Below are positions 38 through 38,718 of a stretch of DNA of 64,000 nucleotides, piece by piece. Each line of letters opens with the position of its first letter. Position 1 is the first letter of the stretch. Location: the IMG/VR virus record IMGVR_UViG_3300027983_002388, one strand, 5' to 3'. The notes below the pieces were generated by a model. The model was not told where the DNA came from. It did not search any database and was given only the letters and a program-made list of their open reading frames with translations. Made by a program: the position numbers and the translations under genes. Source of the DNA: a virus (Duplodnaviria; Caudoviricetes).

Positions 38-123
38 GGGTTCTGTTCCTCATGCCTGACTGTAAATCAGGTGACAAAAAATTTTGAGGCGGCTGTCGAG
101 GGGTTCAACTCCCTCAGAACCCA
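38..123 (+). ncRNA. Atypical tRNA-Tyr(GTA)-like RNA lacking a normal D-arm
   Basis: Acceptor GGGTTCTG/CAGAACCC, anticodon arm CCTGA-CTGTAAA-TCAGG, T-loop GTTCAACTC; only about 10 nt between acceptor and anticodon stems. Confidence 0.7.
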
Positions 124-2047: not shown

Positions 2048-2129
2048 GGCTTTGTGGTGAAATTGGCAAACGCACAGCACTCAAAATGCTGCGTCGAAAG
2101 ACTTGTGGGTTCGAGTCCCACCAAAGCCA
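2048..2129 (+). tRNA. tRNA-Leu(CAA), canonical long variable arm
   Basis: GGCTTTG/CAAAGCC-A, CAGCA-CTCAAAA-TGCTG, variable arm GTC-GAAA-GAC. Confidence 0.95.
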
Positions 2130-2247
2130 CTGTTTCGATTTCTGGATCTGGCTCTTACTCGTTGTGAGTAGAAACACCTTTTTTTGGTGGGGTTATAGAA
2201 GTCAAACCTCCAACGGTGATCTCGTAAAGATCACAGGAGAAAGTAAA

Positions 2248-3420
2248 GTGAAGAAAGTCCACATCAATGTCGGAACGATTGGTCACATTGACCACGGGAA
2301 GACGACTCTGACAGCAGCAATTCTCGCTGTTCAGTCCGAGAAGGGTTACGCAAAAAAGAAAGCATACGGCGACATCGCCAAGGGCGGCACCGTTCGTGAC
2401 GTTACCAAAACGGTAACGATCACCACGTCGCACGTTGAGTATGAGACGGATACCCGTCACTATGCTCACATTGACTGCCCCGGTCACGCCGACTATGTAA
2501 AAAATATGATTACCGGGGCTGCTCAAATGGACGGCGCTGTATTGCTCGTCAATGCAGCAGACGGTCCTATGCCTCAGACGAAAGAGCATATTCTGCTCGC
2601 TCGTCAGGTGGGCGTGCCGGATATTGTAGTATTCCTCAATAAGTGCGATCTTGTCAAAGACGAAGAATTGCTGGAACTGGTCGAGATGGAAACAAGAGAC
2701 TTGCTGACGAAGTATGGCTTCGACGGCGAGAAGACTCCGTTTATCCGTGGAGCAGCAAAACCTGCCTTGGATAATCCTGCTGATCCCGCAGCAAGCAAGT
2801 GTATTGTAGAATTGTTGGCGGCTCTGGATTCTTATATTCCTGACCCCAGCCGTTCTATCGACCGTCCCTTCTTGATGCCCGTCGAAGGTGTTCACAATAT
2901 CGAAGGTCGTGGCTGCGTAGTCACGGGCAAGATCGAGCAAGGAACCATCACGGTCGGAACCAAAGTTGAAATCCTTGGGTTGACTGATATTCTGGAGTCA
3001 GTTGTCACCAGCGTCGAGGCTTTCAATAAGCAACTGGAATATGGAGAAGCTGGACAGAATGTCGGTTTGCTGCTGAGAGGCATCAAGGCCGATCAAGTTC
3101 AGCGTGGACAGGTTGTGGCACAACCACGAAGCATCAAGCCTCACACCAAGTTCAAGAGCGAAATTTACGTCTTGGGCAAGGATGAGGGCGGGCGTCACAC
3201 CCCGATCTTCAATGGTTACAAGCCACAGTTCTTCTTCAGAACTACCAACGTCACCGGCCTTGTCCAAATGCCGGAAGGAATTGAGTTGGTCATGCCGGGC
3301 GAGAACACTTGCCTGTTTATCACCCTGGATAAGCCGATTGCTATCGAAAAAGGTAGTCACTTCGCCATTCGTGAGGGTGGTATGACAGTCGGTTCTGGCG
3401 TCGTGACGGAATTGCTGTAA
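2248..3420 (+). CDS. tuf: Elongation factor Tu (Planctomycetes-type effector region)
   Basis: [40 protein letters not shown]; GTG start after AGGAGA. Confidence 0.97.
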
Positions 3421-3528: not shown

Positions 3529-3810
3529 ATGCGTCGAGAAACAACCATCATCGGCATGATAACAATCATTTTCATGATTGTCGTTTTCTTCATTTCAAGT
3601 GCCACTAATTCCAGCGATCAAGCCAAAATACAAAAATGGGCTAGTGACAACAAATATGTCATAGTCACATCTGAACGGTGTTTTTTCTACTCCGGCCCTT
3701 ATTGGACGACTAAAAACACTCGGATTTACAAAGTCGATTTGGAAAATAACAAAACCCATTGGTTCCGATTCGGACTTTGGGGAACCGACACCGACATCGA
3801 GGAATATTGA
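3529..3810 (+). CDS. Hypothetical membrane-anchored protein
   Basis: ORF with N-terminal hydrophobic helix. Confidence 0.7.
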   Translation: MRRETTIIGMITIIFMIVVFFISSATNSSDQAKIQKWASDNKYVIVTSERCFFYSGPYWTTKNTRIYKVDLENNKTHWFRFGLWGTDTDIEEY

Positions 3811-4947: not shown

Positions 4948-5208
4948 TCATACAACAATTCTTACGTTTCCGGGTGGCTTTCTAGGAGCCATCTCTCCCT
5001 GTCCCAAAATCATTACAGAGTGTCCAACTTGTGTTAGGTGAAACTCTAAAGTCACATCCTCAACCATCCAAAGTCCCATGCCAGTTCCATTACAGTGTGG
5101 ACAAGGTCCATCAACCAAACCACTGCAATTACAATTTCCACAAGATTTCTTTACGAAAAAATCCATATCCATCTCCGCCACAAGTGTAACAAAAATCACA
5201 TGGCACAA
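4948..5208 (-). CDS. Small Zn-finger protein (DnaJ-like CxxCxGxG)
   Basis: CGNCNCSG and CPHCNGTG motifs. Confidence 0.55.
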   Translation of the reverse strand: MCHVIFVTLVAEMDMDFFVKKSCGNCNCSGLVDGPCPHCNGTGMGLWMVEDVTLEFHLTQVGHSVMILGQGEMAPRKPPGNVRIVV

Positions 5209-5481
5209 AATCGCTCAGTGGAAGAAAGAATGAACATTTTGGCTCTTATCCCAATTGGTGGGATTGCCGGTATGCCGCCATATACGCCACATGCAGGATC
5301 AGGAAAAATCGCCTGTGCTGGCTGTGGTATAGCTTGTTGGATCGGTCCTCGTCAAACCGTGATGAAGCTCGAAAAGCCTGAACTCCCGGCATTGTGCATG
5401 TTGTGTGCGTGCAAAGAAATACAAAAACAAAAAGAATCAGACGAAGAAGTAACTGCATCCGTGATTCCATTAGGTGATTGA
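5200..5481 (+). CDS. Small Zn-binding hypothetical protein
   Basis: CAGC and CMLC motifs. Confidence 0.6.
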   Translation: MAQNRSVEERMNILALIPIGGIAGMPPYTPHAGSGKIACAGCGIACWIGPRQTVMKLEKPELPALCMLCACKEIQKQKESDEEVTASVIPLGD

Positions 5482-5483
5482 AT

Positions 5484-6134
5484 ATGCAAAGAGATTATAG
5501 TTGGAAGCCATCCTGGAGTCCTATTCACAAAGAATGTGACGTTCACCCTCATGTCCCTGCGGAACGTGCTGATTTATTTGAGGTCGCCGATGGCGGCTCT
5601 ACTGAATATGAAGTCTTAAATTGGCTTCATTCCACAATCCGAGTATTGAAGCCACAACTGGTTCTTGAAACTGGTGCGTGGGAGGGTTTCGGAACAACCG
5701 CCCTAGCTCATGCTTGCAAACTCAATGGATTCGGCAAGGTGCATTCTCTTGAAGTTCTGCCGCCACAATGCGTGCGACTTCAGACGGTTCTTGAAGAAGA
5801 ACACTTGCTTAAATGGGTTGAAGTGCATTGCGTAGATTCGCTTGAATTCTTGCAACAATCTAATATTATCTTCGATATTGGATTCTTTGATAGCCTGACC
5901 GAGATCAGGCCCATCGAATGCGAGATAATGCTCAACAAAGGCACGTTGAGAAACCTTGCTGTCTTCCACGACACATCGCCTCATCGGTCTGAATCCGCTC
6001 CTGATTGGACCAGCACAGAAACTCAAAACACATACAGAGAAAAGGTCTTGGCCTTAGCCAAACATCCCCGATGTACTGGCTACTATGATTCCCCACTATC
6101 CAGAGGATTCATGGCCTTGTTCTTAAAAGGCTAA
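5484..6134 (+). CDS. Class I SAM-dependent methyltransferase (Methyltransf_24-like)
   Basis: [12 protein letters not shown] motif I, FFDS, VFHDT. Confidence 0.8.
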
Positions 6135-6135
6135 C

Positions 6136-6473
6136 ATGAAAAACGTAGTTGTAATGTTCCCATATCCATCGGGTGCCGGTTTACACTTGGGGCATTACTA
6201 TAATTATGCCATTATCGACAGCTATTGTCGATTTCTGCGATATGAGGGCGAAGAAGTCTTTCAGCCTTTTGGATATGACGCATTCGGACTGCCTGCCGAG
6301 ATCAAGGCTTGAAGAATTCAGTACGAAATTATTTGTTCTTTTGGAAAGTGAACAAGGTGGTCAGCACATTCATGACCTTCTATAACGACAACAAAGACAA
6401 AAAAGTCTCGCCCGCCAACGCCAAAGAGATTGTCCAGTTGCTTCAAAATTTTGCACCTGGATTTAATCTTTGA
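6136..6473 (+). pseudogene. leuS: Leucyl-tRNA synthetase relic: N-terminal HIGH region joined out of frame to the C-terminal anticodon-domain helices
   Basis: 6136..6312 reads [14 protein letters not shown]...[12 protein letters not shown]; a different frame from 6300 to 6473 reads ...KVNKVVSTFMTFYN...EIVQLLQNFAPGFNL*. Not in the ORF track. Confidence 0.85.
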
Positions 6474-8837: not shown

Positions 8838-8919
8838 GGCCCTGTGGTGGAATTGGAATACACATGGGACTTAAAATCCCACGCCGAAAGGATTGCGGGT
8901 TCGAGTCCCGCCAGGGCTA
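8838..8919 (+). tRNA. tRNA-Leu(TAA), canonical long variable arm
   Basis: GGCCCTG/CAGGGCT-A, TGGGA-CTTAAAA-TCCCA, GCGGG-TTCGAGT-CCCGC. Confidence 0.95.
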
Positions 8920-8922
8920 CGT

Positions 8923-8952: not shown

Positions 8953-9033
8953 GGCCGAGTGGTGGAATGGCATACACGATGGTTTTAGGAACCATTGCCG
9001 CAAGGCTTGCAGGTTCAAGTCCTGTCTCGGTCA
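8953..9033 (+). tRNA. tRNA-Leu(TAG), canonical long variable arm
   Basis: GGCCGAG/CTCGGTC-A, ATGGT-TTTAGGA-ACCAT, variable arm GCC-GCAA-GGC. Confidence 0.95.
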
Positions 9034-9061
9034 CTAATGAGGAATGAGGAATGAGGATACG

Positions 9062-17915: not shown

Positions 17916-18707
17916 ATGCGTGCCGAAATTGTCCACGTTACGGACCACGCTTTGTTGCGATGGAAAGAACGTGCGTCGAAAACAGGTGAAGTCAACGTAG
18001 AAGAAATCGTTCAGGCTGTAAAAGAATCCAAGGTCATCAAAAAAAACGAACCTTTGCCTTACCCGATGCCTCGTTTAGATGGATCAGTTTACAGCTTCAA
18101 TGCCGGAGTGTTGTTCATTCTCGAATCAGTAACCATTGATGAATATCGACTCGTCACAGTTATCGCCGACGAGCCGACCTATCAACGGATTGCTCGACCG
18201 CCGAAGAAACAACTTAATCCTCGAAAGAGACAGAAATACGAGGAAGTTCAAAAGGTGCAAATCGACATTCCTTGCTTTGAAAGTTTCATCGAAGAACGTC
18301 AATGGTTGACCGACGAGAAACGAAAACTCGAAAGTGAACTGGCAACAACAGCGAAGAAATCTTCCACTCGCAAAGAAATATTGAAGGTGTGGGGCGAGAT
18401 TGAAGCCCGACTCACCGAGAACAAACCTCAATATCTCGAAGAGCGGAAAAAATCAGGAGACGGATATGTTGACTATGGTTCTCTTCTTTTGCAAATTATC
18501 AGAGAGTTAAAAGAAATACGCTCTGAACAACAGGAATTACGTAACCTAATCGAAGGCTCCAATGGACAACAACCGAGATCACCGAGCAATCGGAAAAAAG
18601 CTAGACCTCTTCATGTTCAGCCCTCTATCGCCGGGTTGTCCGATCTGGCTCCCGAAGGGAGTTGTGCTTTATCAGTCTTTGCTGAACCGCATTCGTCAAC
18701 TCAATGA
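17916..18707 (+). CDS. Hypothetical protein (VTDHALLRWKER motif, coiled coil)
   Basis: ORF with AGGAG SD; 3' end overlaps thrS. Confidence 0.7.
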   Translation: MRAEIVHVTDHALLRWKERASKTGEVNVEEIVQAVKESKVIKKNEPLPYPMPRLDGSVYSFNAGVLFILESVTIDEYRLVTVIADEPTYQRIARPPKKQLNPRKRQKYEEVQKVQIDIPCFESFIEERQWLTDEKRKLESELATTAKKSSTRKEILKVWGEIEARLTENKPQYLEERKKSGDGYVDYGSLLLQIIRELKEIRSEQQELRNLIEGSNGQQPRSPSNRKKARPLHVQPSIAGLSDLAPEGSCALSVFAEPHSSTQ

Positions 18708-19785
18708 AGCCAATGGTTGCCAAGAAGTTCGGACCCCACTTATATGGAAGTCCGAACTTTATGCAACCAGCGGACACCTGGATCACTATGCAAAAAATAT
18801 GTTCTTCGTCAGTGATAAGCCTGCTGGCGAGTCCCACGAAGAAGGACATGAAGATCAGTGCTTAAAACCAATGAATTGTCCTGGGCATATGGAGATATTC
18901 CGCTCGAAACAGTGGAGCTATCGAGACTTGCCTGTTCGATTCGCTGAATATGGTCCTTTACACCGCAATGAAGTTTCTGGTGCCTTGGGTGGGCTAACTC
19001 GCTGTCGTGCATTCTGCCAGGATGACGCCCACATTTTCGTTTCGCCGGACAACCTACAAAGCGAAATCAAACGAATCCTTGTCATGATCGAAAGAGTTTA
19101 CGGATGGTTTGGAATGAAGTTCCGATCCGTACTCAGCACTCGTCCTTATAACTTCATGGGCGAGAAGTTGGTTTGGGATAATGCTGAGGCGAACCTCGAA
19201 GATGCTTTATGCGAAAATGGATTGAAGTTCGAGATTGCCCATAAAGACGGTGCGTTTTATGGTCCAAAAATAGACTTCATTGTGACTGATTCCCTTGGAC
19301 GTGATTGGCAAACAGCAACAATCCAATTGGACTTCCAGTTGCCTCAAAGATTCGGTTGTACCTATACCGACAAGGACGACAAAGAGCAAACTCCAATTGT
19401 CATTCACAGAGCAATATACGGCAGCTTTGAAAGATTCATTGGTGTATTGTTGGAACATACTGACGGGCATCTACCATTATGGTTGGCTCCTGTTGGTGTA
19501 ACCATTGCACCAATCAGCGACAAAGTTGCTGAATACGCTGATGAGATCAAAGAGGTTTTGCTTGCTCATGGAATTCGGTGTGAATGCGATCACTCGAATC
19601 GAACTCTGCAACAGAAGATTGCCATCGGGTACGATAAAAAAGTACCCTACATGGTCATCTTGGGAGAGAAAGAAAAATCCGCAAGAACCGTTACCCTCAA
19701 ACAAATGAGATCAACTGCTGTCGCACAGGAAACCTTATCTTTGGAAGTATTCCTTCCTCAGATGGTCGCACTGGCGAAAGAGTAA
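18562..19785 (+). CDS. thrS: Threonyl-tRNA synthetase, catalytic and anticodon domains only
   Basis: RDHRAIG, LKPMNCPGH, HRNEVSGALGGLTRCR, AFYGPKID, TIQLDF, VIHRAIYGSFERF. Confidence 0.95.
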   Translation: MDNNRDHRAIGKKLDLFMFSPLSPGCPIWLPKGVVLYQSLLNRIRQLNEANGCQEVRTPLIWKSELYATSGHLDHYAKNMFFVSDKPAGESHEEGHEDQCLKPMNCPGHMEIFRSKQWSYRDLPVRFAEYGPLHRNEVSGALGGLTRCRAFCQDDAHIFVSPDNLQSEIKRILVMIERVYGWFGMKFRSVLSTRPYNFMGEKLVWDNAEANLEDALCENGLKFEIAHKDGAFYGPKIDFIVTDSLGRDWQTATIQLDFQLPQRFGCTYTDKDDKEQTPIVIHRAIYGSFERFIGVLLEHTDGHLPLWLAPVGVTIAPISDKVAEYADEIKEVLLAHGIRCECDHSNRTLQQKIAIGYDKKVPYMVILGEKEKSARTVTLKQMRSTAVAQETLSLEVFLPQMVALAKE

Positions 19786-37594: not shown

Positions 37595-38542
37595 TCATCG
37601 GAAAAACTCCGTGTGATCCACGAATTTGAAGCCGCAACGGGCGGCAAAGGTCTTGTCGGTCGTCATGTCACCGACGTAAGTGCATTTACGAGGATCGAGC
37701 TTGTATTTGTAGATCAACTCCACGCCCATTCCAGGACCGGGCTTCCGACAATAACAAGTAATCGGAGGAACCTTGTGAGGACAATACAAGATTTCCTTGA
37801 ATTCCACGCCCAACTGCTTTGTGGTTTCTGCAAAACAGGCTTCGGCATCTGCCGCTGTGAGTTTTCCTTTGGCGATGCCTGACTGATTGCTGGCCCCCAG
37901 GATTAAGACTCCCTGAAGACCTACGATTCGTTTGAGTCGAACAGACCGCTGTTTAATGGCTCGAACTTGATCCGGCGAAACCGGATATTTCTCTTCACCA
38001 ACATGGGTTCGGAGTGTGCCATCAAAATCAAAAATGGCAGCTTCATTGACCCAATCAGCGGGATAAATCCGCACGAACTTTTCAGATTTTACCGAAGCGA
38101 ATCCCTCTGCAACCGTGGGCTTTTCAAAGTCTTTGCGATATTTGTAGAGAACGGCGACAGGGAAAAGATTCGGGTCGTCTTTGTACGGAGCCAACTTGTG
38201 GTCGTCGGGATGAAGAATCTTTCCGCAGCGTTCCATCATGCGACAACAAGCGTTGAATTGAGCGTCTTCAAGCGACGTATCCATCAGCACAAAATGGACA
38301 TCAACTCCAACGTCTTTTGCGGCTTTGAGAACTTCGGCCCGGCTCGTTTTGGTCGCATATAGATTGTCCATGACGACATTCTTGCCTGCCCGAAGTGCGG
38401 CCAGCATGGGCGAAATGAGGTCATTCACCTTGCCGCCCAAAGTATCCCGATTCAATCGGGTGTATCCCTGGTCAACAAAACGCTTTGTGACCGTTGTTTT
38501 CCCACCCGCAGGCATTCCGCCAACCAAAACGACTTCTGCCAT
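37595..38542 (-). CDS. Polynucleotide kinase-phosphatase-like (AAA_33 kinase plus HAD/GmhB-type phosphatase)
   Basis: GGMPAGGKTT, LNRD, VMDN; DFDGTL, SNQSG, CRKPGPGM, YVGD. Confidence 0.85.
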   Translation of the reverse strand: MAEVVLVGGMPAGGKTTVTKRFVDQGYTRLNRDTLGGKVNDLISPMLAALRAGKNVVMDNLYATKTSRAEVLKAAKDVGVDVHFVLMDTSLEDAQFNACCRMMERCGKILHPDDHKLAPYKDDPNLFPVAVLYKYRKDFEKPTVAEGFASVKSEKFVRIYPADWVNEAAIFDFDGTLRTHVGEEKYPVSPDQVRAIKQRSVRLKRIVGLQGVLILGASNQSGIAKGKLTAADAEACFAETTKQLGVEFKEILYCPHKVPPITCYCRKPGPGMGVELIYKYKLDPRKCTYVGDMTTDKTFAARCGFKFVDHTEFFR

Positions 38543-38575
38543 GAGTTGCTCCTTTTGAAGTTGTAAAGACCAGAA

Positions 38576-38604
38576 ACTATACCACAGAAGACTTCTTGTG
38601 TAAA
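38576..38604 (-). promoter_or_regulatory. Sigma70-like promoter
   Basis: Minus strand TTTACA-N17-TATAGT with TG extension. Confidence 0.7.
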
Positions 38605-38611
38605 GCAACAA

Positions 38612-38718
38612 CAAAAAGGCTTCAAAGTATCTCTTTTACAGCGACAGAATATGAGGAAAAGACCAAAAAGGCTTCAAAGTATCTCTTTTACAGCGACAGA
38701 ATATGAGGAAAAGACCAA
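38612..38718 (+). repeat. 52-bp tandem duplication covering the leader and SD of the GT2 gene
   Basis: CAAAAAGGCTTCAAAGTATCTCTTTTACAGCGACAGAATATGAGGAAAAGAC, two copies. Confidence 0.95.

Follow-up and report, generated by a model that had tools for sequence, protein, structure and literature searches.

What kind of RNA is made by a gene that has the anticodon arm of a tyrosine tRNA, perfect to the last base pair, and no room for a D hairpin? As the textbooks and recent papers have it, all bacterial tRNAs, outside organelles, are cloverleaves. The gene in question, a tRNA-Tyr(GUA)-like gene of 86 bases, occupies positions 38–123 on the plus strand of the window, by which we mean the whole 64,000-nucleotide stretch of viral DNA that was analyzed. 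It sits in a huge-phage tRNA cluster, and the window itself looks like part of a huge phage. The original prediction, made from this one sequence, saw in the gene a conserved alternative fold that acts as a tRNA decoy or as a noncanonical adaptor, and not a decayed tRNA.

In this paper, we ask what the relatives of this gene, in phages and in bacteria, have to say about that idea. Our answer, which draws on comparisons of sequences, is that the gene very probably encodes a functional tRNA for tyrosine, one whose core has been rebuilt and is no cloverleaf.

An RNA with No Space for a D Arm

At its ends and in its anticodon arm, the gene is familiar. The acceptor stem pairs 38–44 with 116–122, and G45–C115 extends it to 8 bp (5′ strand 38–45, 3′ strand 115–122). 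The T arm (100–114) has a 4-bp stem (100–103 with 111–114, including G100·U114) closed by the loop UUCAACU, and the eight-and-four (8/4) arrangement that had been proposed is, thus, present. The discriminator A73 is position 123; no CCA is encoded here, and CUU comes next. The anticodon arm (55–71) is as perfect as had been said, with a 5-bp stem (55–59 with 67–71), the loop CUGUAAA (60–66), and the tyrosine anticodon GUA at 62–64. Directly after the gene lies a 7-bp hairpin (125–142), possibly a processing or spacer element, that is kept with a different sequence in two related phage contigs, L001 and L002.

The unfamiliar part lies in between. The 8-bp acceptor stem and the anticodon stem are just 9 nt apart, which makes a D hairpin impossible; its absence was correctly called. 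The first of these nucleotides form a UU linker (46–47) at the place of U8 and U9 in bacterial tRNA-Tyr; it is TT in 112 of 116 distinct family members and TC in 4, a conservation that was partly imposed by our search pattern. The linker is followed by CCUCA and U53 (48–53, U53 being unpaired here) at the site that the 5′ strand of the D stem takes in a normal tRNA-Tyr. The complement of CCUCA (48–52) is UGAGG (85–89), which lies within the loop of the variable arm, and we call this pairing helix A. A single position-26-like nucleotide (54; G in 84 of 115 members) stands between helix A and the anticodon stem and could form a G·U pair with U72, as it does in the MFE fold.

After U72 comes GACA (73–76), the 5′ strand of the variable-arm stem, which pairs with UGUC (94–97) to make helix B. 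The loop of this arm holds an A/U-rich linker, AAAAAUUU (77–84; 6–14 nt long and A/T-rich in all members), then the 3′ strand of helix A, and directly after it CGG (90–92), an instance of a near-invariant YGG motif found in nearly all aligned rows; this is the GG that had been noticed behind the displaced helix. Since helices A and B cross, the fold is a pseudoknot, formed by the same two pairs of complementary strands (CCTCA with TGAGG and GACA with TGTC) that the original prediction had picked out. The YGG motif may make a contact to the T loop like that of G18–G19, or it may wobble with U46 and U47; neither side of the possible U46/U47 wobble with G91/G92 varies among relatives.

How does such a gene look to the standard tools? 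Rfam's tRNA model RF00005 (cmscan) gives it 24.3 bits against a gathering score of 29, aligning the acceptor, anticodon, and T arms while skipping 15 D-arm model positions and placing 7 nt there. By the standard of that model, it keeps the closing acceptor stem, the discriminator base, a T arm of the GUUCRANYC type, the 5-bp anticodon stem, the 7-nt loop, and U33, and it lacks the D stem–loop, a score at the gathering level, and detection by ARAGORN, which does not report a Tyr gene at 38–123 of the window. The fold z-score is only −2.6. Because of the low Rfam score, the ARAGORN miss, and this modest z-score, the window taken alone is weak evidence. The nested MFE fold already puts the CCUCA/UGAGG helix under the anticodon stem. 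It also contains the pair G45–C93, which we rejected, as position 8 does not track the base after YGG in relatives. An exact 22-mer pattern scan gave no match.

A skeptic might say at this point that we are admiring a decayed or truncated tRNA-Tyr pseudogene whose pairings arose by chance. The gene does fall below the Rfam threshold, ARAGORN does miss it, and short complementary words are common: 3- to 4-mers find a match in 67–87% of unrelated variable regions, which makes short-word tests without position constraints uninformative. What the skeptic has to contend with is the gene's relatives.

Relatives in Phages and Bacteria

Among contigs that have a similar EF-Tu, L001 and L002 carry the same region at 83–84% identity, and L004 carries a more distant copy; even by eye, these copies show compensatory substitutions in every helix. 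In IMG/VR, a pattern scan picked out 19 stretches, with 16 contigs beyond the three reached through EF-Tu, and a looser pattern returned at least 115 stretches. With R1, a covariance model built from 17 sequences, we found, among the matches listed from uncultured phage contigs, 96 copies, of which 88 are distinct, at scores of 54–95 bits, whereas ordinary tRNAs in the same 1.5 Mb reach 36 bits at most. Among 50,697 records of cultured phages, blastn found no match to the window gene or to a common member of the family.

Members of the family are 84–91 nt long and are always found within tRNA clusters. The distance from acceptor stem to anticodon stem is fixed at 9 nt in 113 of 115 members, and our search patterns did not impose this spacing. 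A scan that allowed any anticodon gained just one non-GUA member (loop CUUAUAA), so the design is essentially specific to tyrosine. Two members are odd, at L113:727–826 (−) and L165:7011–7096 (+): one adjoins a normal copy and carries, where the anticodon arm should be, a 6-bp stem closed by a loop of 17 nt, and the other has the loop CUUAUAA (anticodon UAU).

Bacteria have the gene, too. The GTDB species genomes contain at least 29 family members, scoring 62–97 bits, and among the 29 bacterial matches listed, 21 belong to Planctomycetota, several of them on megabase contigs. The carriers include two cultured strains, Thalassoglobus neptunius KOR42 and Neorhodopirellula pilleata Pla100. In Planctomycetota, the copies lie within dense tRNA arrays of 25–31 tRNA genes in 5–8 kb. 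Two of these arrays (L184 and L223), with 31 tRNA genes each, cover 19 amino acids, all but tyrosine, and in both of them, the pseudoknotted gene sits between a short tRNA-Leu(CAA) and a tRNA-Glu(CUC).

One contig binned as Planctomycetota, L237 (6.4 kb), has a pseudoknotted Tyr gene at 68–153 and an EF-Tu gene at 5110–6261 that has 65% DNA identity to the EF-Tu gene of the window. It may be a fragment of a huge phage and, as such, hint at host range.

Five Helices That Covary

All five helices covary across about 115 distinct sequences. In an unfitted MAFFT alignment of 17 sequences, 91.5% of the cells are paired (93% in helix A and 84% in helix B), against 68% after shuffling, and none of 500 shuffles reach the observed value. 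To avoid circularity, we left helix A out of a second model, R2, and kept helix B in it. In the R2 alignment of 87 distinct phage sequences, 95.5% of the cells are paired; shuffles, none of which in 500 come up to this figure, give 69%, and sliding the partners gives 39–52%. The bacterial copies alone (29 among the matches listed) give 95% pairing, which none of 500 shuffles reach.

The crossing helices matter most. Helix A is 95% paired in the R2 alignment, despite its absence from the R2 model, with four to six pair types at each of its pairs 3 to 6; in an alignment from a model with helix A and without helix B, it is 98.7% paired. The covariation of CCTCA with TGAGG, the check proposed with the original prediction, thus came out in its favor, at 95–99% pairing in the family and with four to six pair types at four positions. 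The 3-bp core of helix B is 98–100% paired in the R2 alignment, as GC, CG, UA, and AU. As for the remaining helices, the anticodon stem is 99.5% paired, with all 5 pairs covarying, and the acceptor stem is 99% paired, with all 8 covarying; in the T stem, G53–C61 and G52–C62 are invariant, and 51–63 covaries.

The eighth acceptor pair deserves a word of its own. In the phage sequences, position 8 goes with position 65 as GC (56), UG (14), UA (10), AU (6), or CG (1), and it is unpaired in 0 of 87; it is paired in 29 of 29 bacterial sequences among the matches listed. The rival pair, 49–65, is A·C in most members. These counts support the 8/4 arrangement, and the 12-bp acceptor/T arm is kept. We also tried a 7/5 arm with a bulged T stem, in which the GA before the T stem can pair with 64–65, and rejected it, given that 65 covaries with 8 without exception.

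One can also do without alignments. A variable 4-mer followed by GG, complementary to the 5′ strand of helix A, occurs in the sequence's own variable region in 100 of 115 cases, against 12.5% for other sequences; a strict Watson–Crick 3-mer partner for helix B directly precedes the T stem in 109 of 115, the rate for other sequences being 10.5%. That is, once position is constrained, own matches stand at 87–95% and the matches of other sequences at 10–13%.

These results leave little of the skeptic's case. Some 115 distinct sequences of one architecture, with compensatory changes in every helix and no shuffle in 500 that does as well, speak against a pseudogene, and because the helices covary, we regard that explanation as refuted, or as near to it as makes no difference. 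The original prediction of a conserved alternative fold in place of a decayed tRNA holds up: both crossing helices and the 8/4 arm covary in about 115 distinct sequences.

A subtler objection is that the gene encodes an ordinary tRNA-Tyr in interrupted or permuted form, which removal of an intron-like piece or rejoining would return to a normal cloverleaf. The length of 84–91 nt is that of a class II tRNA-Tyr, and the missing bases of the D arm seem to reappear in the variable region. As read from the sequence, however, no single contiguous deletion restores a D hairpin; the order of A-rich linker, 3′ strand, and GG is unlike that of a D loop; there are no splicing motifs; and the crossing helices covary in the very order in which they stand in the genome. 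We consider a permuted gene very improbable.

A Probable Tyrosine tRNA Beside an Ordinary One

If the fold is conserved, what is it conserved for? The identity set of a class II tRNA-Tyr is all there: G1–C72, A73, G34–U35–A36, and a long variable arm, whose stem is helix B. G1–C72 is found in 114 of 116 members, and A73 and GUA in 115 of 116 each; neither G1–C72 nor A73 was imposed by the search patterns. Those patterns did, in part, dictate the UU, the CC, and the anticodon and T loops, whose invariance, consequently, counts for less. Of 87 phage copies, 69 encode CCA, which is absent in the clade of the window and in most Planctomycetota copies.

The pseudoknotted gene does not stand alone. 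An ordinary tRNA-Tyr, which ARAGORN finds (83–85 nt, with a D arm and a UUCG-capped variable arm), lies 7 nt to 1.6 kb upstream of the pseudoknotted gene in L001, L002, L004, and L032; the corresponding site in the window falls beyond its left end. Each of the eight bacterial genomes tested also has one ordinary tRNA-Tyr elsewhere, and in L287, L288, L294, and L297, the ordinary gene adjoins tuf. Because the two forms coexist, the pseudoknotted gene is not strictly required for decoding. A bacterial-type TyrRS whose C-terminal domain is S4-like is found in a related phage contig of 532 kb; no TyrRS was seen among the window ORFs that were scanned nor in three of four related contigs.

Coexistence is what keeps the decoy half of the original prediction alive, because an ordinary tRNA-Tyr adjoins the pseudoknotted gene in the phage clade of the window. 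One can imagine a mimic of tRNA-Tyr that works outside translation, as a decoy or sponge for a nuclease or another tRNA-Tyr-binding protein or, once charged, as a donor off the ribosome. An ordinary tRNA-Tyr is present in that clade and in every bacterial genome tested; Septu and retron-Eco7 can be blunted simply by an excess of tRNA-Tyr (PMC13096335, PMC11555353); and the fold differs from what the ribosome and the modification enzymes normally meet. Against such a mimic, a decoy for a nuclease that attacks the variable arm would be expected to retain an ordinary variable arm and not to bury it. The anticodon loop, U33 and A37 included, is retained, as are the 12-bp acceptor/T arm, A73, and the encoded CCA, and the gene supplies the sole amino acid that the arrays are missing. 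We judge a role outside translation unlikely.

Of the two functions that had been proposed, then, the noncanonical adaptor appears to fit better than the decoy because conservation extends to the tyrosine marks, to the anticodon and T loops, and to the encoded CCA, and it is favored again because the pseudoknotted gene fills the one amino acid gap of the bacterial arrays.

The Neighborhood of the Gene

The window contains a loose tRNA cluster that includes three short, class I-like tRNA-Leu genes and three long ones. The short genes, with anticodons CAA (163–239), GAG (1805–1881), and TAA (1959–2033), all on the plus strand, are 75–77 nt long and have a short variable region and A73; the GAG gene has C33. 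ARAGORN misses the first two of them in the window. The long class II tRNA-Leu genes lie at 2048–2130, 8838–8920, and 8953–9034. Similar short Leu genes flank the pseudoknotted Tyr gene in Planctomycetota arrays and are also found in related huge phages. The resemblance of the neighboring tRNAs to those arrays is a hint to the host of the window phage.

Several protein genes concern translation or the handling of RNA. EF-Tu is encoded at 2086–3420 (+); its true start is probably later because the ORF overlaps the tRNA-Leu at 2048–2130 and homology begins near 2250. A ThrRS core of 407 aa (18562–19785, +), which matches positions 170–558 of TIGR00418, consists of the catalytic core and the anticodon-binding domain, without the N-terminal editing part. 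At 37595–38614 (−) is a Pnkp-like kinase/3′-phosphatase with AAA_33 kinase and PNK3P domains, an enzyme of the kind with which phage T4 repairs cleaved tRNA; the window ORFs that were scanned showed no RNA ligase. The window also encodes glutathionylspermidine synthase, a deacetylase, collagen-like tail fibers, helicases, a DnaB-like helicase, and a piece of a DNA polymerase. No homing endonucleases were found near the Tyr gene.

Other observations concern the relatives. L001 and L004 lie on contigs that IMG/VR counts as proviruses. In L004 (the 532-kb phage), ARAGORN finds a 91-nt tRNA with anticodon CUA at 5374–5464 (+), and in L178, a Bacteroidota-binned contig that carries the family, it finds a UUA-anticodon tRNA and a tRNA with a four-base anticodon (2274–2353 and 3703–3776, −). 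The odd anticodons of these tRNAs hint at suppression of stop codons or frameshifts.

Comparison with Known Systems

The nearest family is the canonical class II tRNA-Tyr(GUA), of which L001:2341–2425 and L004:9487–9571 are examples. At about 85 nt, the pseudoknotted RNAs match it in length, and they share with it G1–C72, A73, U8–U9–C10–C11, the CUGUAAA and T loops, and a variable-arm stem. They differ from it in having no D hairpin or D loop, in taking the partner of the D strand from the variable loop, in the pseudoknot itself, and in an 8/4 in place of a 7/5 arm.

The 8/4 arm has precedents. The (8/4) tRNA-Ser and tRNA-His of phages and the allo-tRNAs have the same 12-bp arm, as well as a long anticodon branch, a long variable arm, and a home in phage tRNA clusters (Mukai et al. 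2017, PMC5389517). Unlike the RNA of the window, they keep a tRNA-Sec-like D hairpin (a long stem with a tetraloop) and a nested cloverleaf, and they carry serine or histidine identity (G73/U73 or His marks), where our family has A73 and GUA. Neither a Tyr member nor a pseudoknot is described among the (8/4) tRNAs in that work (PMC5389517).

Loss of the D hairpin has its precedents, too, among mitochondrial tRNAs (metazoan tRNA-Ser(AGY) and nematode tRNA-Ser), which, likewise, have an extended anticodon stem. Those tRNAs are organellar, about 55–65 nt long, have neither variable arm nor pseudoknot, and need specialized factors. They delete the D stem, whereas the family described here, from phages and bacteria and of full length, replaces it with helix A.

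Work on antiphage defense also concerns tRNA-Tyr. Septu cuts the variable arm of Escherichia coli tRNA-Tyr at 48/49, and retron-Eco7 is reported to cut the variable loop (PMC13096335, PMC11555353). The tRNA-Tyr of phage T5 is reported to resist by means of a distinct variable loop, and extra tRNA-Tyr rescues phages (PMC13096335, PMC11555353). These anti-PtuAB/Septu and anti-retron-Eco7 tRNA-Tyr genes of T5 and T6 are phage borne like ours, but they are ordinary cloverleaves (PMC11555353, PMC13096335). The T5 variable loop differs from that of the host and is reported to be resistant; for the RNA of the window, resistance is a hypothesis.

Arrays of tRNA genes, dense in Planctomycetota and looser in the window phage, host the pseudoknotted gene in both settings. 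In Anabaena, the tRNAs encoded in an array become aminoacylated in vivo (PMC8421152). The surveys of such arrays (PMC4758250, PMC8421152) used standard tRNA finders, and tyrosine is among their rarest isotypes. The pseudoknotted form is absent from these surveys and from a review of noncanonical tRNAs (PMC7609411), and PMC11551756 states that all known bacterial tRNAs are cloverleaves. We found no description of a pseudoknotted tRNA-Tyr in open-access papers and preprints.

Discussion

How might an RNA of this shape do the work of a tRNA? The part of a tRNA that is gripped by EF-Tu and by the CCA enzyme is the 12-bp acceptor/T arm. Here, the acceptor stem of 8 bp and the T stem of 4 bp together keep an arm of just that length, and the anticodon arm is a normal one for UAY. 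Between the two, helix A (5–6 bp) joins the strand that normally starts the D stem to one from the variable loop, with helix B as the short stem of the variable arm. The variable loop would fold back to supply the second strand of a "D stem." Helix A, taking the place of the D stem, would stack on the anticodon stem to give 6 + 1 + 5, or about 12, layers, an anticodon branch that would resemble those of tRNA-Sec and allo-tRNA. At the elbow, the YGG after helix A could take over the role of G18–G19.

Such an RNA would presumably be cut by RNase P and be given its CCA where none is encoded; it would then be charged by a bacterial-type TyrRS by way of G1–C72, A73, and G34–U35 and be used on the ribosome.

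Why should anyone, phage or bacterium, go to the trouble of building such a thing beside a perfectly good tRNA-Tyr? We offer two thoughts, both of them tentative. By analogy with the defense systems above, it is possible, though we would not wager on it, that the fold evolved to escape cutting of the tRNA-Tyr variable arm by nucleases of the PtuAB/Septu and retron-Eco7 types. With its variable loop locked in a pseudoknot and no D loop to offer, the RNA might escape the nuclease and serve as a backup for tyrosine decoding next to the ordinary tRNA-Tyr; a nuclease-proof backup fits because the variable loop is buried in the pseudoknot and the ordinary copy is kept alongside. The second thought is more of a conjecture: the pseudoknotted tRNA-Tyr and the tRNA-Leu with a short variable arm could be parts of a mobile "shadow" class II set, shared by huge phages and Planctomycetota arrays, that evolved to keep translation going despite nucleases or toxins that recognize D or variable arms. 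If there is such a shadow set, then free-living bacteria and viruses would have a pseudoknotted, noncloverleaf tRNA that is active on the ribosome.

Because two cultured Planctomycetota carry the pseudoknotted gene, the question can be put directly to the test at the bench. A conserved, widespread tRNA with a pseudoknot at its core would break the cloverleaf rule and represent a second route to the L-shape. Such a tRNA would also account for the tyrosine that tRNA finders list as missing or rare in phage and array sets, and it would offer a natural chassis for the design of orthogonal tRNAs. For the phages that carry it, it could reveal a new move in their contest with the defenses that cut tRNA.
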